A stretch of 64,000 nt of DNA from an uncultured Chloroflexia bacterium (GCA_963825905.1 CAWGUL010000009.1:33687-97686); one strand, 5' to 3'; positions 850-34,948 are shown, numbered from the stretch's first letter. Translations and numbers: made by a program. Notes: a model not told the origin generated them from the letters alone.

Positions 850-1092
850 TCAGTCTCGGCCGTCGACCACGCACCAGCCGATGGACGATCGCTCGGCCGA
901 CAGGGTGACGAGCAGGTGACAGTCCAGGCAGGTGGCCAGCGCGACCGGCGCCCCGGGCTGCCGGGGGCACGTGACCCCGTCCGGCCCGACCGCACGGAGC
1001 TCGCCGAGGCACATGATCCACGCTTCGCTGGCGGCGCCGGATCCCACGATCGCAGCCTCAGGCGAGGTCGAGCACGCAAGCCGGGTGGTCAT
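850..1092 (-). CDS. Small Cys-rich hypothetical protein (80 aa)
   Basis: ATG at 1092 overlaps the stop of the upstream gene (ATGA). MTTRLAC...CLG...CPRQ...CLDCH...WC, 6 Cys. Confidence 0.55.
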   Translation of the reverse strand: MTTRLACSTSPEAAIVGSGAASEAWIMCLGELRAVGPDGVTCPRQPGAPVALATCLDCHLLVTLSAERSSIGWCVVDGRD

Positions 1093-1493
1093 GCGCCGAT
1101 CACCGCCGGCCGCCAGCCGGCGACCAGGACCGCCCACGCGATGGCCAAGTCGATCACGAGCCCCAGGACGATCCAAGGGTGGAAGAAGACGAGCAGGACG
1201 CCCGCCGACGCGAGCGCACCCGCCAGCGCCGCGATCGGCCACCATGCCGTCGGGACGCCCCAGCCGACGGTGGCCAGGGCCGCGAGGACGAGCAGGGCCA
1301 CGGTGACGAAGATCAGCGCGGTGCCGGCCGCACGCGCGACGGCGGGATCGAGACCGGCCGACGTCACGAGCCAGGATCGCTGCATCTCGAATGGCCACTC
1401 GGGACCGCCCGCGGTGCGCGGCGGGGGCGGGGTGAAGTAGAAGGCGTGGACCAGGCCGTGCGCAAGGAGAAAGACGCCCAGCAGGAGTTTCAC
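1089..1493 (-). CDS. Hypothetical 4-TM membrane protein
   Basis: MKLLLGVFLLAHGLVHAFYF..., with an HGxxH motif and four hydrophobic segments. Confidence 0.7.
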   Translation of the reverse strand: MKLLLGVFLLAHGLVHAFYFTPPPPRTAGGPEWPFEMQRSWLVTSAGLDPAVARAAGTALIFVTVALLVLAALATVGWGVPTAWWPIAALAGALASAGVLLVFFHPWIVLGLVIDLAIAWAVLVAGWRPAVIGA

Positions 1494-1551
1494 AGCAGCA
1501 GCCTCGCGATCCGGTGGGCACGAGCATGGACCGCGGGGGCGGGTGTCCCTA

Positions 1552-1565
1552 GGGCCGGACGTCCT
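1552..1565. promoter_or_regulatory. Putative DosR/DevR-like box
   Basis: GGGCCGGACGTCCT about 60 bp upstream of the gene starting at 1493. Confidence 0.55.
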
Positions 1566-1583
1566 GATCGGCAGGGCGCTTCG

Positions 1584-2726
1584 TCATCGCGTCGGCTCCG
1601 AAGTGGCGTCGGGCGTCGGCACGGCCCGCATCGTCGCGAGGGCCTCCGACGCGATGACGAGATCCTCGCGCGCGCGCACCGCGAGCACCGCGGGCGGCCC
1701 ATCGGCCAGCACCCGGTCGTCCGCCACGGCCGAAGCGAGGCGCGCGGGCACGCGGAGCGTCGCCAGCCGCTCGACGATCGCCTGCCGCATCGCGGCGCTG
1801 TGCTCGCCGATGCCCCCGGTGAAGACGATCGCATCGAGGCGTTCGAGCGAGGTGGCCACCGCGGCGATGCCGGCCGCCGCACGGTGGGCGAACATCGCCA
1901 GGGCCAGGCGAGCGGCCTCATCGCCCCCCGACGCTCGCTCCTCGAGCTCGCGCACATCGCTCGTGCCGCCGATGGCGAGCAGCCCGGACCGATGGGCGAG
2001 CCCGTCGCCGAGCTCGTCGGGCGAGAGGCCGGCCGTCGCCAGGTGGACGATGATCCCGGGATCGACCGAGCCCGCGCGCGTGCCCATCATCAGCCCCTCG
2101 GCGGGCGTGAAGCCCATCGAGGTGTCGACCGACCGCCCTCCGGCGACCGCCGTGACCGAGGCGCCGGAGCCGAGGTGCGCGACGACCATCTCCAGCTCCC
2201 CGACCGGCCGGCCGAGGAGATGGGCAGCCCGGAGCACCGCCCACGTCACCGACAGGCCGTGGAACCCGTAGCGGCGCAGCTCCCAGCGCGCCACCCAGTC
2301 GGCGGGCAGCGGGTAGCGCCATGCGGCCTCGGGAAGGGTGGCGTGGAAGGCGGTATCGAAGCAGGCGACGTGGGGAATGTCCGGGAACGCGACGCGCCCG
2401 GCGCGGATCACCGCCGCGGCCCGGCGATTGTGCAGCGGGGCCAGCGGATCGAGCGCCTCGATGCGCGCGACGAGGGCATCGTCGACGCGGAGCGGACGGA
2501 TGCCGCCCGCCCCGCCGTGGACGACGCGGTAGCCGACCGCGACCGGCGTGCCGCCGAGCTGCGCCCGGGCCGCCTCCACGATGCCGGGGGCGGTGCCCGC
2601 ATCGTCGCCGCCGCCGGGCCACGCGATCTCGGTGGTGGCGAGCGCCGCTCCGCCCGCAACCAGGCTCGCCTTCAGCGTGCTCGAGCCGGCGTTGAGGACG
2701 AGGATCGGATCGGTCAGGTCGGCCAT
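1584..2726 (-). CDS. ackA: Acetate/propionate kinase
   Basis: [59 protein letters not shown] motifs. Confidence 0.95.
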
Positions 2727-5092
2727 GCCCAGTCGCGGATCGCGGGATCGTCGTCACCGTGGGCGCGCGTGTAGGCGCGCGCCGCGGCCCTCCGGTCCTC
2801 CATCAGCTGCCGGAGCTGGCCCGCGCGATCGGCGAGGCCGGGGACGCGGTCGATGACGTCCATCACGAGGTGGAATCGATCGAGGTCGTTGAGCATGACC
2901 ATGTCGAACGGCGTCGTCGTCGTGCCCTCCTCCCTGTAGCCGCGAACGTGGAGGTTGTCGTGGTTCGTGCGGCGGTAGGTGAGCCGATGGATGAGCCACG
3001 GATAGCCGTGGTAGGCGAACACGATCGGCCGATCGGTGGTGAAGATCGCGTCGAACTCGGCGGTGCTCATCCCGTGCGGATGCTCGCGCTCGTCGACGAG
3101 TCGCATGAGGTCCACGACGTTCACGAGCCGCAGCCGCAGGTCGGGAACGTGTTCCCGCAGAAGAGCGGCGGCGGCGAGGGCCTCGAGCGTCGGGACATCG
3201 CCGGCGCAGGCGAGGACGACGTCGGGCTTGCCGCCGGCATCGGTGCTCGCCCACGGCCAGATCCCGATCCCGCGCGCGCAGTGCGCGATGGCGTCATCCA
3301 TCGTCAGCCAGGTGGGCGCCGGCTGCTTGCCGGCAACGATGACGTTGACGTAGCCCCGGCTGCGGAGGCAATGGTCCGCGACCGAGAGCAGCGTGTTGGC
3401 GTCGGGCGGCAGGTAAACCCGGATCACCTCCGCCTTCTTGTTCACGACATGGTCGATGAAGCCGGGGTCCTGGTGGCTGAATCCGTTGTGGTCCTGGCGC
3501 CAGACGTGGCTGGAGAGGAGGTAGTTCAGCGACGCGATCGGCCGCCGCCACGCGATGCCACGCGTCGTGTTCAGCCACTTCGCGTGCTGGTTGAACATCG
3601 AGTCGACGATGTGGATGAACGCCTCGTAGCAGTTGAACAGGCCGTGGCGGCCGGTCAGCAGGTAGCCCTCCAGCCAGCCCTGGCAGAGGTGCTCGGAGAG
3701 GACCTCCAGCACCCGCCCGTCGGGCGCGAGGTGCTCGTCGACCGGCAGCGTCTCCGCCATCCACGCCTTGTCGGTCGTCTCGAAGACGGCGGCGAGGCGG
3801 TTGGACGCCGTCTCGTCCGGCCCGAAGAGGCGGAAGGTGGACCGATTGCGGTCGATGACGTCACGCAGGAACGTGCCCAGCACACGGGTCGCCTCGGCGG
3901 TCGTGGCGCCGGGCGACGGCACGTCCACGGCGTACTCGCGGAAGTCCGGGAGGGCGAGGTCGCGCAGGAGACTGCCGCCGTTGGCGACCGGGTTCGCGCT
4001 CATCCGCCGGTCGCCACGCGGCGGAAGGCCGGCGAGCTCCGGCTGCAGTCGGCCGGCCGCGTCGAACAGCTCGTCGGGCCGGTAGGAGCGCAGCCAGGCC
4101 TCGAGCTGACGGAGGTGCGACGGGTCGTTGCGGACGTCGGCGAGCGGGACCTGGTGCGAGCGCCACGTGCCCTCGACCGGCAGCCCGTCGACCTCGGCGG
4201 GGCCTGTCCAGCCCTTCGGCGTGCGCAGGATGATCATCGGCCACCGAGGCCGCGTGCCGGACGTGCCGCTGGCTCGCGCGTCGCGCTGAATGGTCGCGAT
4301 CGCGTCGAGCGACCGGTCGAGGGCCCCCGCGAAGGCCTGGTGGACCGTCTCGGGGTCATCGCCGGCGACGATCTGCGGCGCGTACCCGTAACCGACGAAG
4401 AGGGCGATGAGCTCCTCCTCGGGGATGCGCGCGAGGACGGTGGGATTGGCGATCTTGTAGCCGTTCAGATGCAGGATCGGGAGCACCGCGCCATCGCGCG
4501 CGGGGTCGAGGAACTTGTTCGAGTGCCAGCTCGCAGCCAGCGGACCGGTCTCCGCTTCCCCGTCGCCCACGACGCAGGCGACAAGAAGGTCCGGGTCGTC
4601 GAAGGCGGCGCCGTAGGCGTGGACGAGGGCGTAGCCGAGCTCGCCGCCCTCGTGGATCGAGCCGGGAGTCTCCGGCGCGACGTGGCTCGGGATGCCGCCG
4701 GGAAAGCTGAACTGGCGGAACAGGGCGCGCATCCCCGCCGCGTCGGGGTTGATCCGCGGATAGACCTCCGAGTACGTGCCCTCGAGGTAGGCGTTGGCCA
4801 CCATGGCCGGTCCGCCGTGTCCGGGGCCGGCGACATAGATCGCGTTGAGGTCGCGCTGGCGAATGGCGCGGTTCAGGTGGGCGTAGACGAGGTTGAGGCC
4901 CGGCACGGTGCCGAAGTGGCCGAGCAGTCGCGGCTTCACGTGCTCGGCGCGCAGGGGTTCCCGAAGGAGCGGGTTGTCGAGGAGATAGATCTGGCCGACC
5001 GAGAGGTAGTTGGCCGCCCGCCAGTAGGCGTCGATCTGCGCCAGCTCGCGCGCATCGAGCGGGCGTTCGGTCGCGGATGCCGGGCTCGCCAT
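2714..5092 (-). CDS. xfp: Phosphoketolase (X5P/F6P)
   Basis: [51 protein letters not shown] motifs. Confidence 0.95.
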
Positions 5093-5202
5093 GTCAGGTG
5101 GATCTCGGGCGGTGGGGTGCGCCAGCGTAGCGCACGCCCGACCAGGCGCGGCGTCGGGCACTCACGGGACTCGGCGCCGCTCGGTGCGCGACTCCGACGG
5201 GC

Positions 5203-6132
5203 TCAGTGCGCGGACGACCCCTCCATCGCCAGGCTCGGGCCCGTCCGGCGCGCCGCAGTCGTTCCGGCCGCCGCCGGAACGATGCTGCGGTCGATGCGCC
5301 GCGCGAGGACGAGGCCGAAGCCCGCCGCGACGACGAAGGTGACGATCGGTGGCAGTGCCAGCTCACCGGTGACGATCCACGCCGAGACGAGCATGGCCGC
5401 GATGGCGAGCGACATCGTCACGAACGTCACCAGGAACGCGGCGCCCGCGACCATCCCCGCCGGCGAGCCGCGCCAGACGGCCGTCGCGAGCAGGAGCGAC
5501 AGCGGCACCACGAGGCCCAGGTCGAGGACCTGGACGGTCATCGTCGTCTCGCCCTCGAGGACGGGGACCGCGGCGCCCAGCCCGGTCGCGATGCGGCCGG
5601 CCCACAGCACCGTGAGGAGCAGCCCCATCGTGGCGCCCAGCACCGGCCACGCGCGGCGCGGGTAGCTCGCGTCGAAGCGGTCGGCGACGCCGGCCGTGGC
5701 GAGGAGCCTGCCGGCGAGGATGACCCCGACCAGCGAGGCGGCCGTGATGGCGATGAAGACCGGGAGTAGTGGCCCGAAGGCCCACGTGACCGCGTACTCC
5801 AGGTACGCGTACAGGAAGTAGCCGAACATGCCGGCCGCCAGCAGCGCGCCGCGGAACGAGCCGTGCGCCACCAGCACGGCGGCGACGAGGAGCAGTGGAA
5901 CGGCGATGACGAGCGTGAAGACGTCCCAGCCGACTCCCTCGGCCACCACCTCGCGGGCGTTGTTGGCGTAGACCCCGGTCGCCGCCATCTGGTACGCCTC
6001 ACCCCGCGCGCTCAGGGCGGCGACGAACGTCCCGTCGCCGCGCGCGAAGACGCCGAGCGTGGAGGCGATGGCGGCGAGCAGCGCGACGGCCGCGCCGAGG
6101 GCGGCCGTCGCGGTGCGCATCGATCGGTCCAT
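5203..6132 (-). CDS. Hypothetical multi-pass membrane protein
   Basis: About 8 TM segments, packed tightly in the minus-strand operon. Confidence 0.7.
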   Translation of the reverse strand: MDRSMRTATAALGAAVALLAAIASTLGVFARGDGTFVAALSARGEAYQMAATGVYANNAREVVAEGVGWDVFTLVIAVPLLLVAAVLVAHGSFRGALLAAGMFGYFLYAYLEYAVTWAFGPLLPVFIAITAASLVGVILAGRLLATAGVADRFDASYPRRAWPVLGATMGLLLTVLWAGRIATGLGAAVPVLEGETTMTVQVLDLGLVVPLSLLLATAVWRGSPAGMVAGAAFLVTFVTMSLAIAAMLVSAWIVTGELALPPIVTFVVAAGFGLVLARRIDRSIVPAAAGTTAARRTGPSLAMEGSSAH

Positions 6133-6135
6133 CGG

Positions 6136-6585
6136 TCAGGCCGCGACCGCCATCCGGGAGCCGAGCGTGACGCCCCAGGCGCGTGCCCGGACGAGCTCCT
6201 CGGGAAGCAGCTCGGTGTTCATGGACACGATGAACGTCTCGCTCCGGACCGGCGCCGCGCCGAGCGCCTCGAGCCGGTCCTGGATCCGATCCGCCGCCGA
6301 GCCGGACAGCCAGCGGGGCCAGTGGAGCCGCGTGTCGAAGGTCGCGACCGCGCGCCCGTCGAGGCGCGGCAGCTGATCGAGGAAGGCGGACATCTCCCCG
6401 GTCATGCCGTGGGCCTCGGTCGGGCCGCCGACGACGAGCAGGTCGATGTCCGGGGTGACGGCTCCTGCCGCCGCCTCGACGGCCACCAGCAGCGTGCTGG
6501 CGGTCGTGCGGAGCCCCTCGGCGATCGCCTCCGCCACGCGTTTCGTGTTGCCCTTGTGGCTGGCGTAGCAGACGAGCGCGTTCAT
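6136..6585 (-). CDS. Flavodoxin-like protein
   Basis: YASHKGNTKRVAEAIAEG, GGPT, ATFDTR. ATGA overlap with the upstream gene. Confidence 0.85.
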   Translation of the reverse strand: MNALVCYASHKGNTKRVAEAIAEGLRTTASTLLVAVEAAAGAVTPDIDLLVVGGPTEAHGMTGEMSAFLDQLPRLDGRAVATFDTRLHWPRWLSGSAADRIQDRLEALGAAPVRSETFIVSMNTELLPEELVRARAWGVTLGSRMAVAA

Positions 6586-7088
6586 GCGTGTACCTCCTTC
6601 GCCGCCAGCGCGGCGGCGATCTGATCTGCCCATTCGCGGATCGACTCCCAGTCCCGGAAGTCGCCGCGCGGGGCGTGAACGGTGGCGGTGACGGCTCGTT
6701 CCATGAAGCCGAGGCGGGTGGCGTCGAGCCGGCCGGCGAAGGACCGATGCGCTTGCGCGCTGATGCGCGTGGCGATGGCGACTGCCTCCGGCGGCTGGTC
6801 CGCCGGCGCCGGCGACGACCCGGTCGGTCCGCTGGAGAAGGCCCAGACCGGCATGCGCGCCAGGGTCGCCTCATGGCGGTCGACGAAGTGACGCGCCGGC
6901 TCGAGCCAGCGGCCGACGTAGACGGCGCTGCCGACGACGACCGCGTCATAGGAGTCCAGGGTGGCGACCGTCTCGGGCGCGCGGCTGTCGACGGTGTGGC
7001 CGTGATCGCGGAGCACGCCGGCGATGACCTCGCCGATCTCTCCGCTGGCACCGTGCCGCGAGGCGACGGTGACGAGCACGTGCTGCAT
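6582..7088 (-). CDS. Flavodoxin-domain protein, HemG-like (menaquinone-dependent protoporphyrinogen oxidase family)
   Basis: ASRHGASGEI, YDAVVVGSAVY.GRW, WAFSSGP, FAGRLD, GDFRDW motifs. Confidence 0.8.
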   Translation of the reverse strand: MQHVLVTVASRHGASGEIGEVIAGVLRDHGHTVDSRAPETVATLDSYDAVVVGSAVYVGRWLEPARHFVDRHEATLARMPVWAFSSGPTGSSPAPADQPPEAVAIATRISAQAHRSFAGRLDATRLGFMERAVTATVHAPRGDFRDWESIREWADQIAAALAAKEVHA

Positions 7089-7154
7089 GGGTGTCCTTCC
7101 CTCGACGTGCACGGGTAGCGGTTCCAGCGTCGTCCAGCGAGGGTGGTGCGACCA

Positions 7155-7191
7155 GTGCCGGATGTCCCGCGGGCGAGGCGCCGAACGGCCC
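7155..7191. promoter_or_regulatory. Tandem DosR-like boxes
   Basis: GTGCCGGATGTCCC (7155-7168) and GCGCCGAACGGCCC (7178-7191), spaced 23 bp. Confidence 0.55.
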
Positions 7192-7221
7192 GGAGCCCGG
7201 CGCCAGTGGTGGAAGCGCCGC

Positions 7222-9113: not shown

Positions 9114-9115
9114 CG

Positions 9116-10072: not shown

Positions 10073-10302
10073 GGTCGTGCTCCTTGTGGATCGGTTGCGG
10101 TGTCGAATGCGGCGCTCAGCTCCGCGGCGATGTCAGGGTCGAGGAGACGGACGAGCAGGCCGCCGCTCAACAGGGCCCAGTCGTCCGCGGCCGCGGCGGG
10201 CACGGCGAGCGTCGACGCCCGCCGGCGCGCTCCGCCCCGCAGCTCGACGGTGGCGACGGCCCCGTCGACGGCGACGATGCGGACCGGGGCGGTCAGGCAC
10301 AT
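10069..10302 (-). CDS. hypC: Hydrogenase chaperone, HypC/HybG/HupF family
   Basis: N-terminal MCLTAP..IV, 77 aa. Confidence 0.85.
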   Translation of the reverse strand: MCLTAPVRIVAVDGAVATVELRGGARRRASTLAVPAAAADDWALLSGGLLVRLLDPDIAAELSAAFDTATDPQGARP

Positions 10303-15334: not shown

Positions 15335-15370
15335 GCCACGACGCTACGCCGGGCGCCGGGTCCGGCATGA

Positions 15371-23632: not shown

Positions 23633-23668
23633 CGGCCGACCGGCCCGCAGGTTCGGGCCGAAGGGCCC
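23633..23668. promoter_or_regulatory. Tandem DosR-like boxes upstream of USP
   Basis: CGGCCGACCGGCCC (23633-23646) and GGGCCGAAGGGCCC (23655-23668), spaced 22 bp. Confidence 0.7.
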
Positions 23669-24104: not shown

Positions 24105-24209
24105 CTCGGCCTCCTTTGCCTGAGAAGAACTGATTCAGCGTCGCAATGGGCCGCACCGCGGCACAGTGCCAAGCGTCGCCTTCGGCTCCTGCCATCCGTC
24201 ACATCGAGG

Positions 24210-26732: not shown

Positions 26733-26739
26733 CGATGCA

Positions 26740-27894: not shown

Positions 27895-27901
27895 CACGCG
27901 C

Positions 27902-28147
27902 CTACCGCTGCTTCTCGACGACGATCTCGTCGTAGCCGTCGCGGGTCTCGACGCCGACGAGTCGGTGGCCCGCCTTCTCGATCCACGCCGGGATGTCGAT
28001 GCGCGAGCCTGCATCGGTCGACCAGACCGCGATGACGTCGCCCACGGTGCCCTCGCGGATGGCCCGGATGAGCTCCATGAGCGGCCCCGGGCAGTAGCTG
28101 CCGCGCGCGTCGACGGTGCGCGTGACCGGAACCTCGATGACCATCAT
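27902..28147 (-). CDS. TusA-family sulfur carrier
   Basis: [10 protein letters not shown] motif. Confidence 0.88.
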
Positions 28148-28169
28148 CGGTCTGCTCCTTTCTTGTCGT

Positions 28170-28739
28170 TCAGATGAAGAGGGTGGCATCGGCAGATGCC
28201 ATGAGCTCGAGGGCTGCGGCTGCGCCGGCCGGCTCCTCGACGCCCTCGATGAGCTGGTCACGCCGGATGCCCATCATGTCGAGCGACATCTGGCACGGGA
28301 TGAGGCGCACGCCCATCGCCTGGGCGATCTCGAGCAGCTCGGCCGGCAGGGCGACGCCCCGCGAGCGCGCGAGCCGCTTCATCATCCACGGGCCCATGCC
28401 GAGGAAGTTCATGCGGCCCAGCTTGAGATGACCGATGCCCGGGCGATTGAGCGCCGACAGGCCACGCTGCATCAAGTTGGTGCCGGTGATCCGGACGTCG
28501 GATCGGACGAGGGGGAACAGCCCCCAGAACGTGAAGAAGAGCGTCACCTTCATGCCGCTGGCGGCGGCGCTGGTGGCGAGGATGAGCGTCGCCCAGGTGC
28601 GCTCGAGGTCGCCGCTCTCGGCGACGATCACGACCTCCTTGGTCTTCGCTTCGCCTGGCGCCGGCGCTTCGTCGTCGAGCGGCGTCGCAAGGACGCGTTC
28701 GAGCTCTTCGTCGAGACGAGAGCGGGTGTGGATCGTCAT
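28170..28739 (-). CDS. DsrE2/DrsE-like sulfurtransferase
   Basis: [34 protein letters not shown]. Confidence 0.88.
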
Positions 28740-28749
28740 GGCTGCTGCC

Positions 28750-28983
28750 TCACTTCCGGCGGAGGACGAAGCGATAGACGCCTTCCTCCACGGACTGCTC
28801 GACGAGCTCGTTTCCAGTCGTGCGCGCCCAGGCGACGACGTCCGGCGGCGAGCCCGGGTCGGTGGCGAGCATCTCGAGGAGCTCGCCGGATGCGATGGTC
28901 TTCATGGCCATCGCGGTCTTCACGATCGGCATCGGGCACGCGAGGCCGCGTGCGTCGACGCGCTGGGTGATCTGGAGCGTCAT
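28750..28983 (-). CDS. tusA: TusA-family sulfur carrier
   Basis: DARGLACPMP, ATDPGS..D..AWA..TGNEL. Confidence 0.9.
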   Translation of the reverse strand: MTLQITQRVDARGLACPMPIVKTAMAMKTIASGELLEMLATDPGSPPDVVAWARTTGNELVEQSVEEGVYRFVLRRK

Positions 28984-28995
28984 GGGGGCTGCCTT

Positions 28996-29409
28996 TCAGA
29001 TGAAGAGGACCTGGCCGGTCTCGGCGCATGACCAGAAGCTGGCCACGCCCTCGATCCCGTCGACGAGCGGATCCAAGTCTGTCGGTGCGAGCTCAAGCAG
29101 GTCCATCGACAGCGAGCACGCCCGGATGTCCACGTCGCCGATCTCCTTGGCCTGGCGGAGCGTGTCCGCCCAGCCGGCCTGGCCGCGCCGACGGAGCCGG
29201 CGAACCGCCTCGGCACCGGTGCGCCCCGCCTCCGGCGCGAGACCGTGGTCGCCGTCGATGCGGTCGGCGCGGAATGCGTCGAGCGCCCAGTACTGCAGGA
29301 AGAGATGAACGGGACGCCCGAGCGCCGCGGCGCCGGCGACGAGCACGGCGGCCGCTCCGAGGCGGTCGTCGGTCCCGGAGAAGAGGCTGATAGCGAGCGG
29401 TTCGCTCAT
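28996..29409 (-). CDS. DsrE-like peroxiredoxin/sulfurtransferase
   Basis: LFSGTDDRL, LFLQYWAL, ACSLSMDL, QVLFI. Confidence 0.82.
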   Translation of the reverse strand: MSEPLAISLFSGTDDRLGAAAVLVAGAAALGRPVHLFLQYWALDAFRADRIDGDHGLAPEAGRTGAEAVRRLRRRGQAGWADTLRQAKEIGDVDIRACSLSMDLLELAPTDLDPLVDGIEGVASFWSCAETGQVLFI

Positions 29410-29452: not shown

Positions 29453-29547
29453 GGGCCGGTCGTCGAACGTGCGAAGGGCCGCGCGGCCCCTTTCGTGATG
29501 CCATCCATCCCGACCTGCGACCGAGAGCGGGACGGGCCGGACGGCAC
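29453..29547. promoter_or_regulatory. DosR-like boxes in divergent promoter
   Basis: GGGCCGGTCGTCGA (29453-66), GGGCCGCGCGGCCC (29476-89), GGGCCGGACGGCAC (29534-47). Confidence 0.6.
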
Positions 29548-29641
29548 GTCGGAGCAGTCCGTCCGGAACTTGGCGCTCTGCCTCCGGCAGAGCCACTGTC
29601 CGAGTGGGCCGGTGTGGTCCGACGAGTCGAAGGAGCTTCTC

Positions 29642-30547
29642 ATGCGCATCCTCATCGGAGTCGATGGCTCGAGCGCCGCAGAAGTGGCGTGCGAATTCGT
29701 CGCCAATCGGACGTGGCCGTCCGGCAGTCATGTCCGGCTGCTCGGGGCGGTCGAGGCGATGGTCGACTGGACCGGCCTGGCGCCCGTCGCCGACGGCAGC
29801 GTCGAGGGGCAGCGCGCCGCGCTGGCCGAGATCCTCGAGGAGCGTGCGGAGATCCTGCGTCGTCACGGCATGGCGGTCGAGATGACGGTCGAGCTGGGAC
29901 GCGCGGCCGAGCTCATCCTCCAGGTCGCGAACGAGGAGATGGTCGACCTCATCGTCGTCGGCTCGCGTGGCCTCGGGCCGATCGGGAGCGTCGTGCTCGG
30001 CTCGGTCTCGGCGCATCTCGTCGACCACGCCACCTGCCCGGTGCTCGTCGTCCGCTCGCCGGAGGCGACCCGGATGCTGCTCGCGACCGACGGCACGCCG
30101 AGCTCGCGCGAGATCCCGCACGTCCTTGCCGGCTGGGGGACGGCATTCCGCGGCCTGCCCGTCGAGGTGCTGAGCGTCGCGCACGGGGAGGGATTCGTGA
30201 CCCCGTGGGCGGCCGAGGAGGGGGAGCACGGGCCGAACAACGACCTCGTCGTGCACCACGAGATCGCCGAGCGGGTCGCCGGCGAGCTGGGCGAGCTCGG
30301 ATGGCACGCCGAGGCGATCGCGCGCGCCGGCGAGCCGAGCAAGCAGATCGTCGACGAGAGCCGCGAATGGGGCGCCGACCTCATCGTCACCGGTTCGCGC
30401 GGCATCGGGACGCTCCGCCGGATCATGGCCGGCAGCGTCGCCCATGACGTGCTGACCCATGCCCGTTCCTCGGTGCTCGTGATGCGCGGGCACGTGCCGG
30501 CGAGGCTCCAGGAGCCCGCGGTCGCTGCGCGGCCGGCCTTCGGCTGA
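29642..30547 (+). CDS. Tandem-domain universal stress protein
   Basis: MRILIGVDGS, two 'DLIV.GSRG...GSV' motifs. AAGGAG ribosome-binding site. Confidence 0.92.
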   Translation: MRILIGVDGSSAAEVACEFVANRTWPSGSHVRLLGAVEAMVDWTGLAPVADGSVEGQRAALAEILEERAEILRRHGMAVEMTVELGRAAELILQVANEEMVDLIVVGSRGLGPIGSVVLGSVSAHLVDHATCPVLVVRSPEATRMLLATDGTPSSREIPHVLAGWGTAFRGLPVEVLSVAHGEGFVTPWAAEEGEHGPNNDLVVHHEIAERVAGELGELGWHAEAIARAGEPSKQIVDESREWGADLIVTGSRGIGTLRRIMAGSVAHDVLTHARSSVLVMRGHVPARLQEPAVAARPAFG

Positions 30548-30563: not shown

Positions 30564-30592
30564 ATGGGCCCCGGCATCGCGCCGGGGCCCAT
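30564..30592. terminator. Stem-loop after USP gene
   Basis: ATGGGCCCCGGC-ATCGC-GCCGGGGCCCAT, perfect 12-bp stem. Confidence 0.6.
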
Positions 30593-30607
30593 GCGGCACA
30601 CCTCGAT

Positions 30608-30621
30608 GGGCCGATCGGCCC
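30608..30621. promoter_or_regulatory. Perfect palindromic DosR-like box
   Basis: GGGCCGATCGGCCC about 90 bp upstream of the multicopper oxidase. Confidence 0.6.
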
Positions 30622-30709: not shown

Positions 30710-32044
30710 ATGCGCCGCAGCCTCGCCTATTTCGCCGCCTTTACCGGCATGGGCACCCTCTTCCTCGTCACGATCCTCGTCACTGCCCTTGCCATGAACG
30801 CGATGGCGCCACGCTCCGCGGTGGCCGGCGGCGGGTCGCCTTCCGCGAGCGCCTCAGCCGGACCGGTCGGGGAGATCGCCATCCGCGCCTTCGACCTCGG
30901 CTTCGAGCCGGCGATGGTCGACGTGCCGGCGCCCGGCCGTTACACGGTGACGTTCAAGAACGACGGCGGCATCACGCACAACGTGACCTTCGCGGATGGC
31001 ACGGCGATCAGCGCCGACGCGCACCAGTCGGCGACCGGCGAGGTCGTCATCCCCGCGGCGGGCCTCACGTTCCTGTGCTCGGTCCCCGGCCACGCGGACG
31101 CGGGCATGAAGGGCGAGGTGATGGTCACGGCCGCCGGCGGCTCCGGCGCACCGAGCCCCTCGGCGAGCGCCTCCATGACGGCGGAGCAGATGCGCGAGGT
31201 CGACGCGGCGGTGACGGCGAAGTTCCCCGCCGAGACGAAGGGGAAGGGCAACCAGGTCCTCGACCCGACGATCCTGCCGGACGGGACGAAGCAGTGGGAC
31301 CTCACCGCATCGGTCATCCAGTGGGAGACGGAGCCGGGCAAGGTCCAGACCGCCTACGCCTACAACGGCACCGTCCCCGGCCCGCAGCTCCATGCGCAGG
31401 TCGGTGACAAGGTCCGGATCATCCTCCACAACAACCTGCCGGAGCCGACGACGATCCACTTCCACGGCCTGATCGTGCCGAACAACATGGACGGCGTGCC
31501 GGTGATCAGCCAGCCGGCGGTCATGCCGGGCGAGTCGTTCACGTATGAGTTCACGCTGCGCAACGCCGGCTCGAACATGTACCACAGCCATTTCATGGCC
31601 GAGACCCAGGTGCCGATGGGCCTGCTCGGCGCGTTCATCGTGACCGATCCGGCCGTCAGCGAGCCGAAGGTCGACATCGACTACCCGATGATCCTCAACG
31701 ACGGCCCGCTCGGCTTCACGCTGAACGGCAAGGGCTTTCCGGCCACCGAGCCGATCGTCGCCCAGCTCGGGCAGCGGATCCGCATCCGCTACATGAACGA
31801 GGGGCTCCAGATCCACCCGATGCACCTCCACGGCCTGCGACAGCTGGTGGTGGCGAAGGACGGCTACCCGCTGCCCGACCCGCATTACGAGGACACCGTG
31901 CTCGTGGCGCCGGGCGAGCGGGTCGACGTCATCGTCGACGCCAGTGAGCTCGGGACGTGGGCGTTCCACTGCCACATCCTCACCCACGCGGAGGGGCCGA
32001 ACGGGATGTTCGGCATGGTCACCGCCCTCGTGGTGCAGAAGTGA
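30710..32044 (+). CDS. Membrane-anchored cupredoxin + two-domain multicopper oxidase
   Basis: N-terminal TM, then HNV...CSVPGH...M cupredoxin, then HFHG, YHSH, HPMHLHG and HCHILTH...M. Confidence 0.88.
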   Translation: MRRSLAYFAAFTGMGTLFLVTILVTALAMNAMAPRSAVAGGGSPSASASAGPVGEIAIRAFDLGFEPAMVDVPAPGRYTVTFKNDGGITHNVTFADGTAISADAHQSATGEVVIPAAGLTFLCSVPGHADAGMKGEVMVTAAGGSGAPSPSASASMTAEQMREVDAAVTAKFPAETKGKGNQVLDPTILPDGTKQWDLTASVIQWETEPGKVQTAYAYNGTVPGPQLHAQVGDKVRIILHNNLPEPTTIHFHGLIVPNNMDGVPVISQPAVMPGESFTYEFTLRNAGSNMYHSHFMAETQVPMGLLGAFIVTDPAVSEPKVDIDYPMILNDGPLGFTLNGKGFPATEPIVAQLGQRIRIRYMNEGLQIHPMHLHGLRQLVVAKDGYPLPDPHYEDTVLVAPGERVDVIVDASELGTWAFHCHILTHAEGPNGMFGMVTALVVQK

Positions 32045-32544
32045 TGTGGCGGGCCGGGTGGCAGGCCCTCGACGAGGGGTTCGTGCGCCTCGCGGCGCGC
32101 GTTCCCTTCGCCGGGGACCCGAGCCGGGTGGTGGCGCTCCTCAACGAGTCCGAGCGGCCCTGGAGCGGCACCCCCAGCCCCGACGCGCCGTCCGGCCTGC
32201 GGCGCTTCCTCGTCGACCTGCAGCTGCCGGTGGGCGAGGCGCGCCGTCCGCGGGCGATCTTCCGGAAGGCCGCGCTGCTGGACCTCGGCCCGGCGGAGCG
32301 GCTCGCCGATGGCTGGGTGGCGGAGATCGGCTGGCGTGCCGCGCGCGGCCAGCCGCTCTTCCCGGTCTTCTCCGGTCGCCTCTTCATCGACCGTGAGGCG
32401 CTCCGCATCGAGGGCCTCTACGCGCCGCCCGGCGGCATCGCCGGCCGCGTCGCCGATCGGATGCTGCTGCACCTTGCCGCCAACGGCACTGCCCGCTGGC
32501 TGCTCGCCGAGCTGGCGCGCGACGCGACCGAGCTCGAGCCCTAG
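32044..32544 (+). CDS. Hypothetical protein (possible SRPBCC-like fold)
   Basis: ATG overlaps the stop of the oxidase. 'LFPVFSGRL...IEGLYAPPGG..GRVADR.LLH'. Confidence 0.6.
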   Translation: MWRAGWQALDEGFVRLAARVPFAGDPSRVVALLNESERPWSGTPSPDAPSGLRRFLVDLQLPVGEARRPRAIFRKAALLDLGPAERLADGWVAEIGWRAARGQPLFPVFSGRLFIDREALRIEGLYAPPGGIAGRVADRMLLHLAANGTARWLLAELARDATELEP

Positions 32545-33215
32545 CTCCCGGAGGTGTCGCCCAGGTGGTGGCGCGCCACCAGCGCCGCGGCCTGCGTCCG
32601 GCGCTGGAGGTTCAGCTTCGAGAGGATGCTGCTGACGTAGTTCTTCACCGTCTTGTCTGACAGGAAGACCTCGCCGGCGATCTCCTTGTTCGTCTTCCCG
32701 TCGGCGACGAGCAGGAGGATCTTCCGCTCCTGCGCGGTGAGGTCGGCCAGCTCGTCGTTTGCCCCGCCCGCCGCCGCGCTGCGGACGCGGGCGAGCACCT
32801 TCTCGGTCACGGCCGGGTCGAGGAGCGAGTCGCCGCGGCCGACGGCCTCGAGCGCCGCCACGAGGTCCCGCCCGCGCACCTGCTTGAGGAGGTAGCCGGA
32901 TGCGCCGGCGATGATCGCCGACAGGACCGCCTCCTCGTCGGGGTAGCTGGTGAGCATGACGACCCGGGTCTCCGCCCGCTCGGCCCGGATCTCCCGGCAC
33001 GCCTCGATCCCGGATCCATCCGGCAGCCGCACGTCCATCACCACGAGGTCGGGCTGGAAGCGCTTCGCCTCGCTGATCGCCTCCGCCACGGTACCGGCCT
33101 GGGCGACGACCTCGAACCCCTCGCGCCGATCGAGGAGCGCGACGAGGCCCTGGCGCACGATCTCGTGGTCGTCGACCACGAGGAGTCGCAGGGGGCGGGT
33201 CCCGGGTTCGCTCAT
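32541..33215 (-). CDS. NarL/LuxR response regulator, DosR/DevR-like
   Basis: VVDDHEIVRQGL, MDVRLPDG.GIEACREI, AIIAGASGYLLKQVRG, LTAQE..IL....GKTNKEI....LSDKTVKNYVS. Confidence 0.9.
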   Translation of the reverse strand: MSEPGTRPLRLLVVDDHEIVRQGLVALLDRREGFEVVAQAGTVAEAISEAKRFQPDLVVMDVRLPDGSGIEACREIRAERAETRVVMLTSYPDEEAVLSAIIAGASGYLLKQVRGRDLVAALEAVGRGDSLLDPAVTEKVLARVRSAAAGGANDELADLTAQERKILLLVADGKTNKEIAGEVFLSDKTVKNYVSSILSKLNLQRRTQAAALVARHHLGDTSGS

Positions 33216-34743
33216 CGGTGGCCTCCGTCGCCTCCCGATCCGAGCGGGAGCGCGACGATGATACGGCTCCCACCGGCCGGATCGCTCGTCACGGTGAACG
33301 AGGCGCCCAGCGCGGTGCTGCGGGCGCGCATGTTCGCGAGACCGTGGTGGCCGCGGGCGACCGCCTCGCCGGCGTCGAAGCCGCGCCCGTCGTCGGCGAT
33401 CGTGAGGCGCAGTCGATCGCCGGCCAGCTCGAGGTCGACGTCGGCGCGGGTCGCGGCCGCGTGGCGCGCGATGTTGCTGAGCGCCTCGCGTGTGATCGCG
33501 AGCAGCTCCGCCACCGTCTCGATCGGCAGGCCGGCCACGAGGTCCGCCGGATCCCGGACGACGACCGCCACCGTCACCGCCCCGTTGCGGTGGAGCTCGG
33601 TGGCCAGCTGCTCGACGCCGGTGGCGAGCGTTCCCGCCTCGAGCAGGACCGGCCGCAGCCCGAAGATGAAGTTGCGGATGTCGCGGATGACCGCTTGGAG
33701 CGCGTCGATCGCGTCGTCGACGCGCCGCCGTGCCTCCGCCGGCTCGTCGGCCAGCAGCTCCGGCACGTCCTCGAGGGCGAGCGTCTGGGCGTAGATCGAC
33801 TGGATGACGCTGTCGTGGAGGTCGCGGCTGATCCGGTCGCGCTCGTCGACGACCGCGAAGCGGCGCACCTGCTCGTGCAGCCGCGCGTTGTCGATCGCGA
33901 TCCCGGCATGGAGCGCGAACATCTCCACCAGCGCCTGGTCATCGGTGCTGAACTCGGCCGCGCCGAGCTTGTTCGTCAGGTAAAGGCGGCCCACGACCTC
34001 GCCGCGTGCCGTGATCGGCATGCCGAGGAAGCTGTGCATCTCCGGGTGGTGCGGCGGGAAGCCGAAGCTCTCCGGATGCGTACCGATGTCCGGGATGCGG
34101 TACGTCCGGTTCTCGCGAATGATCAGCCCCAGCAGGCCACGGCCGTGCGGGAGGTCGCCGATGCGGGCACGGTCTGCATCGCTGATGCCGCTCGTGATGA
34201 ATCGCTCGATCGCGCCGTCGCGATCCACGATGCCAATTGCCGCGTACTGCGCGTCGGCCAGCTCGCGGACCCGATCGACGATGACCTGCAGCACCCGGTC
34301 GACGTCGAGCACCCCGCCGATGCCGCGCACCGCCTGGTCGAGTGCGGTGAGCTGCCTGCCGGCGCGATCGGCGCGCGCCTGCGCCCGTGCCGCAATGAAG
34401 GCGAGCTCGACGGCTTCTGCGAGCGCCGTCGCCTGCTGGGGGTCGCCGGCGACGAGCAGGGAGCCAAAGGGGTATGCGTCGCCCGGCGCCGCCAGCGGCA
34501 GGCTGAGAATGCCGGCGGCGGCATCGAACGAGAGCTCGAGATCGGGCAGCGGCGCCGCCCGCGCCTCGAGCCGGCCGAGCTGGAGCCTGAGAAGATCCGC
34601 GAGCTCGACGATCCGCTGCCGGAGCGCACGCACGGTGGCGTCGCTGGGGCTCGGTGCGCCAGGACTCGATCGCCGCGAGCAGCGGCGGGAGGAGCAGCGC
34701 GGGAGGGGAGCCCTGGTTGCCTGCGGTTGGAGGTGGACGCCAT
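33212..34743 (-). CDS. GAF sensor histidine kinase (DosS/DosT-like, HisKA_3), N-terminus probably frameshifted
   Basis: GAF 'LP.GRGLLG...H..S.GFPPHHP.M.SFLG', ERDRISRDLHD, EALSN.ARH, DDGRGF, GHHGL.NM. Leaderless signal TACCCT-6nt-ATG at 34743. Confidence 0.88.
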
Positions 34744-34948
34744 GTGCGCAGGGTACGTCGCCGGTCGCGGGCCGGCGTGCCGGGCGCGCGCGGCAGCCCG
34801 CGCGGGTCATGGGTCGAACGGCTTACGCGGCGGTGCCCGGAGGCAACAGCGTCGAATTCCGCCTCGCGCGGCCGACTCGACGGATGATGCCGTAACGCGC
34901 AAACTGGATATTCGTTTTGTTTGCGGAATCTTCTGAGGGGAAGTACTC

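Follow-up and report, generated by a model that had tools for sequence, protein, structure and literature searches.

The region at positions 850–34824 of the window, which is the whole 64,000-nt stretch of DNA analyzed, probably forms the core of a two-component regulon of the DosRS/OsdKR type, carried by an aerobic Limnocylindria bacterium from soil. Judging from sequence, its mycobacterium-like switch, which would sense oxygen, most likely turns on the neighboring genes for fermentation, hydrogen, sulfide, and copper. Regulons of this kind are known; this one would extend them to a new phylum and to new cargo. The host is an uncultured soil bacterium, a Chloroflexota MAG of the class Limnocylindria with 72% G+C, and the island makes up 1.5% of the genome. 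The relatives were Candidatus Limnocylindria, Limnocylindrales, or uncultured Chloroflexia, so the preliminary description had guessed a Chloroflexota-like host correctly. Haem-copper oxidases were present in the genome, and no cytochrome bd matched above the family cut-off in it; therefore, the organism was considered an aerobe.

The closest solved relative of the regulator is M. tuberculosis DosR (DevR), which was its top PDB match (3c3w, E = 2.6e-57, residues 10–213 vs 3–204), followed by the VraR family (1e-41). The DNA-reading, acceptor, and cooperativity residues of DevR are kept ('KTVKNYVS' for DNA reading, 'DVRLPDG' around the acceptor Asp, and the Thr of 'LTSY'). For the GAF domain of the kinase, the closest solved relatives are the haem domains of DosS/DosT: the top matches were the haem-binding GAF-A of DosT (2vzw, E = 6.9e-39, whole chain aligned) and DevS (2w3d, 2y8h), with E values of ~1e-39 to 1e-37 over the entire domain. 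The proximal haem His ('HHPEM') and distal Tyr ('RLYLT') are retained, which we take to be His149 and Tyr171 in DosT/DevS numbering. The earlier recognition of a DevR-like regulator and a DosS/DosT-like GAF kinase was borne out by these matches. The regulator had matches at E ≤ 1e-30 in 29 of 31 relatives, and orthologues adjoining island genes shared 76–93% identity. One point against the regulon reading is that the kinase-regulator pair had no upstream box in this genome (best 1.1 bits, weight matrix), although OsdR and DevR autoregulate; such a box was present in two relatives.

Table 1. Genes and operators of the island, by position in the window.
Feature	Position	Strand	Basis or detail
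134-aa membrane protein	1089-1493	-	flavodoxin-Xfp-AckA region, 1089-7088
Acetate kinase AckA	1584-2726	-	Pfam
Phosphoketolase Xfp	2714-5092	-	Pfam; NCBIfam phosphoketolase, 1485 bits, above cut-off
305-aa membrane protein	5203-6120	-	flavodoxin-Xfp-AckA region
Flavodoxin 2	6136-6585	-	Pfam
Flavodoxin 1	6582-7088	-	Pfam
Tandem operator upstream of flavodoxin-Xfp-AckA operon	7155-7191		primary 7178-7191 (11.1 bits, one mismatch), second 7155-7168 (5.8 bits), 23 bp apart
Hydrogenase operon, whole	7222-15316	-	Pfam, NCBIfam
Rubrerythrin-VIT1 iron transporter	7222-8349	-	Pfam/NCBIfam
DUF6390	8346-9113	-	Pfam/NCBIfam
EamA transporter	9116-10072	-	Pfam/NCBIfam
HypC	10069-10302	-	Pfam/NCBIfam
HycI protease	10293-10781	-	Pfam/NCBIfam
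Hydrogenase large subunit	10778-12122	-	Pfam/NCBIfam; frame break near 11284
Hydrogenase small subunit	12115-12918	-	Pfam/NCBIfam
Fused HyhB/G-like FeS + FAD/NAD subunit	12915-14855	-	Pfam/NCBIfam
cNMP-binding protein, operon head	14849-15316	-	Pfam/NCBIfam
Tandem operator upstream of hydrogenase operon	15371-15406		primary 15393-15406 (19.6 bits), second 15371-15384 (6.2 bits)
Split pyruvate:ferredoxin/flavodoxin oxidoreductase (PFOR), whole	15439-19423	-	Pfam; NCBIfam pyruv_ox_red in three pieces
PFOR ferredoxin + TPP-binding part	15439-17103	-	Pfam
CBS-pair protein embedded in PFOR	17100-17507	-	Pfam
PFOR alpha-gamma part	17508-19423	-	Pfam; two frames in window
Tandem operator upstream of PFOR	19504-19539		primary 19526-19539 (18.8 bits), second 19504-19517 (4.0 bits)
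GyrI-like domain protein, without own box	19551-20159	-	Pfam
CoA-transferase, acetyl-CoA hydrolase/transferase family	20259-21530	-	Pfam; NCBIfam butyryl-CoA:acetate CoA-transferase, 2.8e-88, below cut-off
Weak tandem operator between CoA-transferase and GNAT	21595-21630		21617-21630 (6.1 bits), 21595-21608 (3.9 bits), 22 bp apart
GNAT acetyltransferase	21684-22223	+	Pfam
CBS-pair protein, with USP1	22252-22665	-	Pfam
USP1	22662-23576	-	Pfam
Tandem operator upstream of USP1	23633-23668		primary 23655-23668 (14.3 bits), second 23633-23646 (10.5 bits), 22 bp apart
Sulfide and ion block, whole	23778-29409	-	Pfam, NCBIfam
108-aa membrane protein	23778-24104	-	sulfide and ion block
P2-type (Ca-type, CtpF-like) ATPase	24210-26681	-	Pfam; NCBIfam PMR1-type ATPase, 1.2e-124, below curated cut-off
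Type-III-like SQR	26740-27798	-	Pfam; NCBIfam SQR_III, 6.6e-95, below curated cut-off
TusA	27902-28147	-	Pfam
DsrE	28170-28739	-	Pfam
TusA	28750-28995	-	Pfam
DsrE-like	28996-29409	-	Pfam
Operator between divergent dsrE and USP genes	29476-29489		GGGCCGCGCGGCCC, 10.7 bits; weight matrix
USP2, tandem-domain universal stress protein	29495-30547	+	Pfam Usp, two stretches
Oxidase operator, weak second box	30586-30599		4.5 bits; weight matrix
Operator upstream of oxidase gene	30608-30621		GGGCCGATCGGCCC, 16.8 bits; 14-bp core = OsdR consensus core AGGGCCGATCGGCCCT
Two-domain multicopper oxidase, N-terminal cupredoxin domain	30710-32044	+	Pfam; PDB 2zwn, 3g5w
167-aa protein, no family, after oxidase	32041-32544	+	Pfam
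DevR/DosR/OsdR-type response regulator, receiver domain + GerE helix-turn-helix	32541-33215	-	Pfam, PDB search
Sensor histidine kinase, DosS/DosT type, one GAF, then HisKA_3, HATPase_c	33212-34810	-	Pfam GAF_2, HisKA_3, HATPase_c; start codon 34810 or 34633

The operator palindrome reads GGGCC-RWWY-GGCCC and is identical to the published Streptomyces OsdR consensus; the available text of PMC5069765 gives AGGGCCGATCGGCCCT, with OsdR sites at -81 to -102. The reading of the shared palindrome as a DosR/OsdR-type box was supported by this match. Its R-W-W-Y spacer has an A/T-rich centre despite the 72% G+C of the genome. In an unbiased count of all 5-N(2–6)-5 palindromes across 62 related loci, GGGCC-N4-GGCCC ranked first among intergenic palindromes (40 intergenic vs 10 coding copies, 13.8-fold per bp), and runner-up palindromes of whatever spacing reached at most 22 intergenic copies and at most 6-fold. 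The related loci for this count and for that of box-following genes were all picked around one island gene, the CoA-transferase, a choice that skews the set of genes a box could precede. The window held five exact copies, all intergenic and within the island. The whole genome held 24, of which 17 were intergenic, an approximate split because the gene calls followed a rough GC3 heuristic.

With a weight matrix, six island promoter regions scored at least 10 bits, and a seventh, between CoA-transferase and GNAT, was the weak tandem pair. At least eight transcription units had been placed behind the same palindrome; the palindrome was real, but it formed seven operator regions serving seven to nine units, not eight clear ones. 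In the weight-matrix scan, neither the ATPase nor the 108-aa or GyrI-like gene had a box in front of it, and the sole site upstream of the 134-aa gene scored 4.8 bits, which chance gives in ~4% of 150-bp regions. Single boxes also lay at ~10 other genome places before unrelated genes (e.g., mraW, clpC, gpsA, a glycerol operon, a CAAX protease); these are either a wider regulon or false positives of the matrix.

A weaker second box at 22–23 bp, about two helical turns, was found in six of the seven island promoter regions, on the gene side in five of six cases. The exception was the dsrE/USP operator, with a G+C-rich spacer and no clear second box. Among the six island boxes of at least 10 bits, five had a partner of at least 3.9 bits at this distance (chance per site ~8e-4). 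None of the 11 strong sites outside the island had such a partner (best 3.0 bits at +21). In relatives, the mean score rose at +22/+23 on one side only, with a partner of at least 3 bits there in 7 of 44 sites and in 0–1 at each other offset examined. According to the available part of PMC4973870, activation by M. tuberculosis DevR depends on the protein binding tandem sites cooperatively. The tandem spacing here fits such binding by analogy.

Every cargo family named in the preliminary description was located at 850–34824 by Pfam, NCBIfam, and PDB sequence searches. The island encodes AckA, Xfp, two flavodoxins, a group-3b [NiFe]-hydrogenase with HycI and HypC, PFOR, CoA-transferase, GNAT, two USPs, two CBS-pair proteins, a P2-type ATPase, a type-III-like SQR, two TusA, two DsrE, a multicopper oxidase of the two-domain type that carries an extra cupredoxin domain, a NarL/LuxR-type regulator, and the GAF histidine kinase. 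The top PDB matches of the oxidase were two-domain laccases (2zwn, E = 3.5e-43; 3g5w). The sulfide and ion block has only short gaps and is presumably co-transcribed. Its dsrE-tusA-dsrE-tusA-SQR-ATPase order was identical in relative G016 and, without the ATPase, in G017. Xfp adjoined AckA in G006, G008, G012, G016, and G017, and the CBS gene embedded in PFOR was kept in G012, G016, G028, and G030. The frame breaks in PFOR and the hydrogenase large subunit are single-base assembly errors: four of four runs inserted one C behind 18697 and omitted one base at 11284, and relatives carried POR_N, PFOR_II, and POR in a single frame.

For the hydrogenase, 'RICGIC' and 'DPCISCATH' were read directly. 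Intact orthologues (G020, G006) were nearest to the group 3b sulfhydrogenase alpha subunits of P. furiosus and T. kodakarensis (E = 2e-62 and 3.5e-60), and Mvh, Hox, and Frh ranked behind. The gene order of the operon was identical in G006 and G012. HypD, HypE, HypF, and HypA were not found in this genome nor in three operon-bearing family relatives; therefore, H2 production is not assured. DUF6390 carries a HypC-like domain and occurs only in hydrogenase genomes where HypD was not found.

In the proposed mechanism, the cytoplasmic kinase would sense loss of O2 (or NO/CO) through its one haem-type GAF and phosphorylate the DevR-like regulator. A regulator dimer would bind the palindrome centred 73–109 nt upstream of starts, a motif and position that were observed, and the weaker second box would permit cooperative tandem binding as in DevR. 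The seven promoter regions would then be switched on, making hypoxic induction of the island units the expected outcome. Flavodoxins, phosphoketolase, and acetate kinase would yield ATP from acetyl-phosphate; the split PFOR and CoA-transferase would be expressed; and the NAD(P)-linked group-3b hydrogenase may release reductant in the form of H2, the role proposed for Hyd3 of M. smegmatis. The iron-storage transporter, the USP and CBS proteins, the DsrE/TusA/SQR sulfide block with the Ca-type ATPase, and the two-domain copper oxidase would follow. Two RNA-library runs gave contigs ~95–96% alike that covered the flank outside the island too; DNA may be present in these runs, and induction cannot be read from them.

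The block is made up of modules: throughout the class, the same cargo keeps the box beside the regulator or away from it. The box was kept at orthologous promoters in G001, G008, G012, G016, G017, G028, and G030. Orthologous operators preceded the oxidase in G008 (18.8 bits), the flavodoxin gene in G008 (18.3 bits, 79 nt upstream), PFOR in G008, G012, G017, G028, and G030, and the hydrogenase in G016 (15.9 bits); in G012, the hydrogenase operon followed PFOR behind an 18.4-bit box. The hydrogenase box was degenerate in same-genus G006 (6.2 bits) and absent in G020 (best -0.5). Strong boxes stood before CoA-transferase in four loci and before GNAT in two. Of 54 genes behind a strong box in relatives, 29 belonged to the island's own families; PFOR alpha was the commonest gene (10 of 54), and two of the 54 were the GAF kinase itself. 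In 8 of the 10 loci mapped in relatives, CoA-transferase and the kinase-regulator pair were no more than ~5 kb apart. Of the refuting pattern named in the preliminary description, genes scattered and without the motif in close relatives, one half was seen, as modules were scattered or lost, but the motif was retained: the cargo block lay 540 kb from the regulator in G012 and on a different contig in G016, in both with the box kept, and same-genus G001 lacked hydrogenase, PFOR, Xfp/AckA, SQR, and oxidase at the locus. The description of the island as self-contained did not hold, given this detachment, the missing hypD/E/F/A, and a genome scan at ≥16 bits in which 7 of 10 intergenic sites lay outside the island and 3 inside, besides one coding site.

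The same system may instead answer a non-oxygen signal, with the single-GAF kinase reporting NO, CO, sulfide, or redox in a gas or reductive-stress response; we consider this rather unlikely. DosS/DosT-type haem responds to NO and CO besides O2 (available part of PMC7607383), and the kinase lacks a second GAF domain. Moreover, SQR, DsrE, TusA, and the O2-dependent copper oxidase match micro-oxic, sulfidic, or nitrosative settings more closely than full anoxia, and an O2-needing copper oxidase with an SQR needing an oxidized quinone pool suits a strict anoxia program poorly. However, the haem pocket has the His and Tyr found in O2/NO/CO sensors (sequence alone cannot tell these ligands apart), and Xfp/AckA, PFOR, and group-3b hydrogenase are the cargo type that M. 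smegmatis induces at low oxygen, as far as the available report goes.

Two further readings were weighed. It is highly improbable that common control is absent, with the palindromes being chance G+C-rich inverted repeats, terminator hairpins, or repeats beside an unrelated two-component system. Loose pattern counts over the whole window did not exceed chance (10 vs 6.1 and 19 vs 16.4 expected), GGGCC-N4-GGCCC can fold as a 5-bp hairpin, at least one genomic copy, at C6 327044 (GGGGCCGAAAGGCCCC), resembles a tetraloop hairpin and is not followed by a gene start, and cargo was detached from the regulator in G012 and G016. Yet the palindrome signal resides in position and context, not raw count: the five exact copies all sat 73–109 nt before start codons and none after stop codons. 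The A/T-rich spacer centre, partner boxes without hairpin symmetry, and an empty terminator scan at the island box positions also speak against hairpins, and conservation at orthologous promoters across genera and the published binding of OsdR to this box (available text of PMC5069765) argue for a regulator site. The strict pattern gave 29 sites in six regulator-bearing genomes (reversed-pattern control 3), but only one in four genomes without a detected regulator orthologue (control 1). Horizontal acquisition of the 34 kb as a mobile island with its own regulator, e.g., from Actinomycetota, is very unlikely. The best-known relatives of the regulator, box, and DUF6390 are in Actinomycetota, and locus content differs sharply among species of one genus. 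However, G+C was flat (0.70–0.75) over island and flanks alike, the window had no tRNA gene, Pfam detected no integrase or transposase among the 41 proteins scanned, and the left flank (ABC-2, DUF4260) was common to G001 and G018. Regulator orthologues occurred in families f1 and f3 (76–93% identity) and f2 (~57–60%), which points to a long-resident system that has gained and lost modules.

The region had been proposed as a candidate undescribed system, but clustered DosR-type regulons are already in print for S. coelicolor and M. smegmatis. In the available text of PMC5069765, S. coelicolor OsdR (with OsdK, SCO0203/SCO0204; regulon ~SCO0167–SCO0219) regulates 20 of the 22 genes from SCO0198 to SCO0219. 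The operator core is alike (AGGGCCGATCGGCCCT vs GGGCCGATCGGCCC at 30608), as are site distances (-81 to -102 vs 73–109 nt), and both regulons cluster around the regulator gene with USPs and a Crp/cNMP-type protein; the same text lists USPs, also present here, as M. tuberculosis regulon members. In contrast, S. coelicolor belongs to Actinomycetota and our host to Chloroflexota, the regulator operon here lacks an upstream box, and there is no link to development here. The cargo is Xfp/AckA, PFOR, group-3b hydrogenase, SQR/DsrE/TusA, and copper oxidase rather than the nitrate reductase Nar2, nitroreductase, and pyruvate phosphate dikinase of Streptomyces. M. smegmatis, also an aerobe, has a clustered DosR-type set (msmeg_3932–3955, msmeg_5241–5246); according to the available part of PMC2799521, msmeg_3932–3955 adjoins the Hyd3 genes msmeg_3931–3927, a four-subunit cytosolic [NiFe]-hydrogenase with protease, and both are induced at low oxygen. 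Both hydrogenases are sulfhydrogenase-like group 3b, whereas here B and G are joined in one subunit, the first gene of the operon encodes a cNMP-binding protein, and the standard maturation genes hypD/E/F/A were not found in this genome. PFOR, Xfp/AckA, and the sulfide block are additions relative to M. smegmatis.

The host here is free-living, in contrast to M. tuberculosis, and its single kinase carries a single GAF, where M. tuberculosis has two kinases, each with GAF-A and GAF-B. The M. tuberculosis DosR box has the geometry GGGNC-N4-GNCCC with an A/T centre; the box here shares it, with the half-site GGGCC in place of the GGGAC of the commonly known consensus. A CBS protein and CtpF are DosR regulon members in M. 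tuberculosis. The island lacks the alpha-crystallin, nitroreductase, triacylglycerol synthase, and nitrate-transport genes of that regulon, and an HSP20 gene stood behind a strong box in one relative.

The DevR-type regulator and the sensor kinase at the right end of the island were compared with solved structures and family models. The best solved relative of the regulator was M. tuberculosis DevR (3c3w), matched over its full length (residues 10-213) at an E value of 2.6e-57, and the next matches lay far behind (VraR, 1e-41; NarL, 5e-32). No DevR model was found in NCBIfam, where the best matches of the regulator (NarL and MadR) stayed under their cut-offs. Three segments, KTVKNYVS, DVRLPDG and LTSY, were identical between the regulator and DevR in the alignment. 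They cover the base-contacting, acceptor Asp and Thr positions, which we take to be Lys179/Lys182/Asn183, Asp54 and the cooperativity residue Thr82 in DevR numbering.

The stop codon of the kinase gene overlaps the start codon of the regulator gene. The GAF domain of the kinase aligned over the full length of the haem-binding GAF-A domains of DosT (2vzw; E 6.9e-39) and DevS (about 1e-37), and the proximal His and distal Tyr of the haem domain were kept in the alignment, which makes the kinase a candidate haem sensor. DosS and DosT share HisKA_3 and HATPase_c with the Limnocylindria kinase, whose gene adjoins that of the regulator. However, they carry GAF-A and GAF-B in tandem, whereas Pfam detected no second GAF in the kinase. 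Therefore, the kinase represents a minimal form. The kinases of the relatives (387-497 aa) likewise contain one GAF. The N-terminal 110-165 residues matched no family. In NCBIfam, all matches of the kinase were under the cut-offs and gave no name. In two relatives, G006 and G030, a paralogue of the DevR-like regulator (64-68% identical) is encoded in addition, at 6-11 kb from the hydrogenase genes; in G030 the orthologous regulator is located elsewhere.

Coordinates of the features discussed (window positions unless a genome and contig are named; G000 is the source genome, G006 and G030 are relatives)
Feature	Position	Description
Island	850-34824	candidate DosR/OsdR-type regulon
Hydrogenase operon	7222-15316	minus strand
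DUF6390 gene	8346-9113	inside the hydrogenase operon
Frame break, hydrogenase large subunit	near 11284	two frames meet; probably one extra base
Cyclic-nucleotide-binding gene	14849-15316	155 aa, stand-alone, no DNA-binding domain; first gene of the hydrogenase operon
CBS-pair gene	17100-17507	between the two PFOR genes
Frame break, PFOR alpha part	18668-18704	two frames overlap; one C missing behind 18697
DevR-type regulator	32541-33215	Pfam Response_reg and GerE
Kinase stop/regulator start overlap	33212-33215	
Sensor kinase	33212-34810	Pfam: one GAF directly before HisKA_3 and HATPase_c
Repeat protein	35172-37967	931 aa, bacterial Ig and cadherin-like repeats; right border of the island
Cupredoxin gene	38014-38358	directly right of the island (region 38014-38738); no box
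Box before glycerol operon	G000:C7:160785	16.6 bits, single
Box before cupredoxin gene	G000:C9:19172	16.8 bits; 14.5 kb upstream of the window
Haem-copper oxidase subunit I	G000:C6:2665-4004	split into two adjacent pieces
Paralogous regulator	G006:C9, about 20953-21606	
Paralogous regulator	G030:C3, about 165440-166075	

The island targets are preceded by palindromes of the type GGGNC-N4-GNCCC, often in tandem, which are putative regulator sites. Counts of loose patterns in the window were not above those of shuffled sequences or chance, and therefore position-aware tests were used instead. The exact form, GGGCC-N4-GGCCC, occurs 24 times in the genome and five times in the window, and all five of these sites are intergenic and inside the island. 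A census of every 5-N(2-6)-5 palindrome in 62 related loci of high G+C ranked this form first, with 40 intergenic against 10 coding sites (13.8-fold per base). The spacer reads R-W-W-Y, and the core of the box equals that of AGGGCCGATCGGCCCT, the OsdR consensus published for Streptomyces. In the island, the box centres lie 73-109 nt ahead of the start codons. The parts of the OsdR study available to us (PMC5069765) place OsdR sites at -81 to -102 and demonstrate OsdR binding by EMSA.

The sites of the relatives were turned into a weight matrix, with which the whole source genome was scanned. At 16 bits or more, the scan gave 10 intergenic sites, three of them in the island, and one coding site; at 10 bits or more, there were 32 intergenic and 35 coding sites, with seven intergenic sites (six promoter regions) in the island. 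The strict pattern GGGCCRWWYGGCCC yielded 29 sites in six regulator-bearing genomes, compared to three for the reversed-pattern control. In four genomes where the regulator orthologue was not found, it yielded one site, and the control also yielded one.

The spacing of the boxes was also distinctive. Five of the six island boxes of at least 10 bits have a weaker partner at 22-23 bp, for which the chance is about 8e-4 per site. At four of these five promoters the partner lies on the gene side; the exception is the oxidase promoter, where it is on the far side. A weak pair with the same 22-23-bp spacing (6.1 and 3.9 bits) was found in the CoA-transferase/GNAT region, and with this pair there are seven operator regions, serving 7-9 units. 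No such partner was present at any of the 11 strong sites outside the island. Among the relatives, the mean score rose at +22/+23 alone and on one side, and seven of 44 sites had a partner of at least 3 bits at this distance. As far as the available sections report, DevR requires cooperative binding to tandem sites (PMC4973870), and a cryo-EM study describes recruitment of RNA polymerase by the DosR dimer (PMC13486717). Before the kinase-regulator operon itself, the best site in the window reached just 1.1 bits; the kinase is preceded by a box in two relatives' loci and, at 13.1 bits, in the same-genus genome G001.

Taken as a whole, the preliminary description of a self-contained DosR-like hypoxia island of about 34 kb was confirmed in part as an observation and supported in part as an interpretation. 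That a DosR/OsdR-type system controls the island operons in common, by way of the palindrome, is well supported. Hypoxia as the signal and a fermentative role of the H2 are inferred. The term self-contained did not hold, as strong single boxes occur elsewhere in the genome and the standard hydrogenase maturation genes were not found in it. Outside the island, a strong single box precedes each of gpsA, clpC and mraW, a CAAX protease gene followed by two receiver-only genes, and a glycerol/dihydroxyacetone operon. Another box separates an operon of the methyltransferase-polyketide type from a cupredoxin gene. Some of these single boxes may be real targets and some may be due to chance. The box of the glycerol operon is located 48 nt ahead of a 90-aa reading frame, behind which come the genes for a glycerol facilitator, DhaK, DhaL and glycerol kinase; this operon could be a further fermentative target.

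The conservation of the island was analyzed by mapping its proteins onto ten relatives' loci and by whole-genome searches among 31 genomes, a tally that includes the unpublished G011 as one member of the set; none of the conclusions depends on G011 by itself. Regulator matches at E <= 1e-30 were found in 29 of the 31 genomes, and the orthologues that map beside island genes were 76-93% identical. The kinase, regulator and CoA-transferase make up a core, in most cases joined by USP, CBS and GNAT genes. The remaining modules are gained or lost between relatives or are detached, yet the box is kept at several of them. Of the 31 genomes, 10 carry the hydrogenase, 21 Xfp and 12 the PFOR TPP subunit. 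The locus of G001 is without hydrogenase, PFOR, Xfp/AckA, SQR and oxidase, and two window boxes are kept there, one letter for letter and the other nearly so. In another relative, G008, boxes are retained ahead of the flavodoxin-Xfp operon, PFOR, USP/CBS and the oxidase.

In G012, a block of PFOR, hydrogenase, EamA, DUF6390, VIT1, Xfp and AckA lies 540 kb from the regulator and has an 18.4-bit box at its head. The block of G016 is on another contig, extends into dsrE-tusA-dsrE-tusA-SQR-ATPase and carries boxes before PFOR and hydrogenase; that of G017 is similar. At the hydrogenase, the box is degenerate in G006 and missing from G020. Among 54 genes behind a strong box in the relatives, 29 belong to island families (10 PFOR, four CoA-transferase, four CBS, three oxidase, two USP, two GNAT, two kinase, one Xfp and one ATPase), a share that is biased because the loci were all picked around the CoA-transferase. 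The remaining genes comprised one HSP20, 10 without a family and an assortment of others.

The source genome measures 2.26 Mb in nine contigs, is 85.8% complete, and carries the window on contig C9. Genes were called by third-position G+C, and 41 products were searched against Pfam and 22 against NCBIfam. All families listed in the preliminary description were found within the island. Its guess of a Chloroflexota host proved right, because the relatives retrieved by the CoA-transferase were MAGs of Candidatus Limnocylindria, Limnocylindrales, and uncultured Chloroflexia or Chloroflexota. Haem-copper oxidases are encoded in the source genome, and cytochrome bd gave nothing above the family cut-off, which fits an aerobic host. 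Four island proteins (134, 305, 108 and 167 aa) belong to no family in Pfam or NCBIfam, and three of them appeared membrane-like by eye. Over positions 800-35500, a scan for consensus sigma-70 promoters returned none, and a scan for intrinsic terminators found none at operon ends, so that transcription units were not definable in this way. The G+C content is 72% over the whole length of the window. A reading of the 34 kb as a mobile island was weighed and set aside. The repeat protein at the right border is unrelated to the regulon, and the G+C content of its region, at 36-38 kb, is somewhat lower (0.68).

The hydrogenase large subunit and the PFOR alpha part are each broken into two frames in the window. 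Window positions 1-20000 were compared with contigs from four sequencing runs, two of DNA and two of RNA libraries. All four runs omitted one base at 11284 and inserted one C behind 18697, and one DNA contig showed just two other differing letters in 1013 nt. The orthologues in G020, G006, G008 and G028 form a single frame. The break in the large subunit is most likely an assembly error, and that in PFOR is an assembly error. For the protein searches, intact natural orthologues served as queries in place of corrected window sequences. The split haem-copper oxidase gene on contig C6 may have the same indel cause.

Both CxxC pairs of the nickel-binding site, RICGIC and DPCISCATH, were read directly in the window large subunit. 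The intact orthologues of G020 and G006 matched the alpha subunit of P. furiosus SHI at 2.2e-62 and 3.5e-60 and Mvh at about 1e-45. This best-match comparison with solved enzymes would place the hydrogenase in group 3b, of the sulfhydrogenase type. The small subunit is present, and beta and gamma are fused in a single 646-aa protein, which matches the beta models (ShyB/HydB) as well as the gamma models (HydG/ShyC, AsrB); all NCBIfam matches of the hydrogenase subunits were under the equivalog cut-offs. The cyclic-nucleotide-binding gene at the head of the operon is kept in G006, G012, G016 and G020. PFOR is complete in its POR_N, PFOR_II, POR-gamma, 2x[4Fe-4S] and TPP-binding parts, which are distributed over two genes flanking the CBS-pair gene, and its specificity for pyruvate is predicted. 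This placement of the CBS-pair gene is conserved in G012, G016, G028 and G030, whereas G008 and G017 do not share it; the gene may link PFOR to the adenylate or energy status.

Genes for a HypC-like protein and HycI were identified by NCBIfam in the hydrogenase operon. HypD, HypF_C and HypA had no match in the source genome (85.8% complete), G006, G012 (95%, two contigs) or G016 (94%), and HypE had none over the cut-off in these four genomes. All four proteins were found in G020, which served as a positive control. Among the 10 hydrogenase genomes, DUF6390 was present and HypD not found in six (G000, G006, G009, G012, G016 and G024), the reverse was the case in four (G020, G022, G028 and G030), and none had both or neither; the related genomes are not independent, and this exclusion rests on family f1 plus G024.

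In the AlphaFold model of DUF6390, built with 33 sequences (pLDDT 83), a helical domain precedes a beta domain. For the latter, the best structural match, and the sole one at Z >= 5, was HypC (Z 5.6, rmsd 2.1 A, 71/71 residues, 25% identity). Foldseek against the PDB placed HypC entries at ranks 1-4, 6, 7 and 49 with weak E values (0.014-0.13), and nothing reached E <= 0.001. The invariant Cys163 of DUF6390 aligns with residue 2 of HypC, which is the Cys position of HypC. BLASTP found no similarity to the operon's own HypC, and the likeness therefore concerns the fold only. A literature search found no mention of DUF6390.

A part of DUF6390 in maturation would fit its mutual exclusion with HypD. 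We regard the complete scheme as improbable: in Limnocylindria, a minimal single-GAF haem sensor of the DosS type would switch the cell from respiration to phosphoketolase/PFOR fermentation and H2 release, and in one family the group 3b hydrogenase would be matured without HypD, HypE, HypF and HypA, with the uncharacterised DUF6390 taking part instead. The presence of a [NiFe]-hydrogenase operon in genomes where the canonical Hyp machinery was not found, together with the alternative occurrence of DUF6390 and HypD, is relevant to the assembly of the NiFe centre.

Clustered DosR-type regulons are already in print. In the available text on S. coelicolor, OsdR controls 20 of the 22 genes between SCO0198 and SCO0219 (PMC5069765). 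For M. smegmatis, the corresponding portion of PMC2799521 reports that msmeg_3932-3955 adjoins the hydrogenase genes msmeg_3931-3927 and that oxygen saturations of 2.5% and 0.6% induce both. What is new here is the host phylum, the sensor with its one GAF and the cargo genes, namely Xfp/AckA, a PFOR whose two genes enclose a CBS gene, SQR/DsrE/TusA and a copper oxidase of two domains. Among the papers listed by searches of main texts, none linked DosR/DevR to Chloroflexota or Limnocylindria. The main text of a 2026 Limnocylindria paper (PMC13212565) contained none of the terms hydrogenase, hypoxi-, phosphoketolase, two-component, ferment- or anoxi-. The accessible part of a preprint on the Chloroflexi supergroup describes few hydrogenases in this lineage, and the terms group 3b and phosphoketolase are absent from that part.

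If common control by this system is true, the DosR/OsdR low-oxygen switch of mycobacteria and streptomycetes reaches Chloroflexota with the same operator. It would also offer a model of how aerobic Limnocylindria survive waterlogging, with substrate-level ATP from acetyl phosphate, PFOR, H2 venting and sulfide handling. Furthermore, the conserved box offers a practical marker by which members of the regulon can be recognised in MAGs.

Limnocylindria (Ellin6529) are abundant in soil and common in rhizospheres and paddy fields as well, and to our knowledge no member of the lineage has been cultured. Part of the hydrogenase-PFOR stretch was contained in 20 public runs from seven studies, on metagenomes of soil, rhizosphere, plants or unspecified origin. 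The runs include two RNA libraries of one rice-paddy study, which gave contigs about 95-96% alike across all 30 bins of island and flank; with the flank covered as well, they are no measure of transcription proper or induction, and their depth cannot rank genes. These contigs are compatible with expression by relatives in periodically flooded soil.
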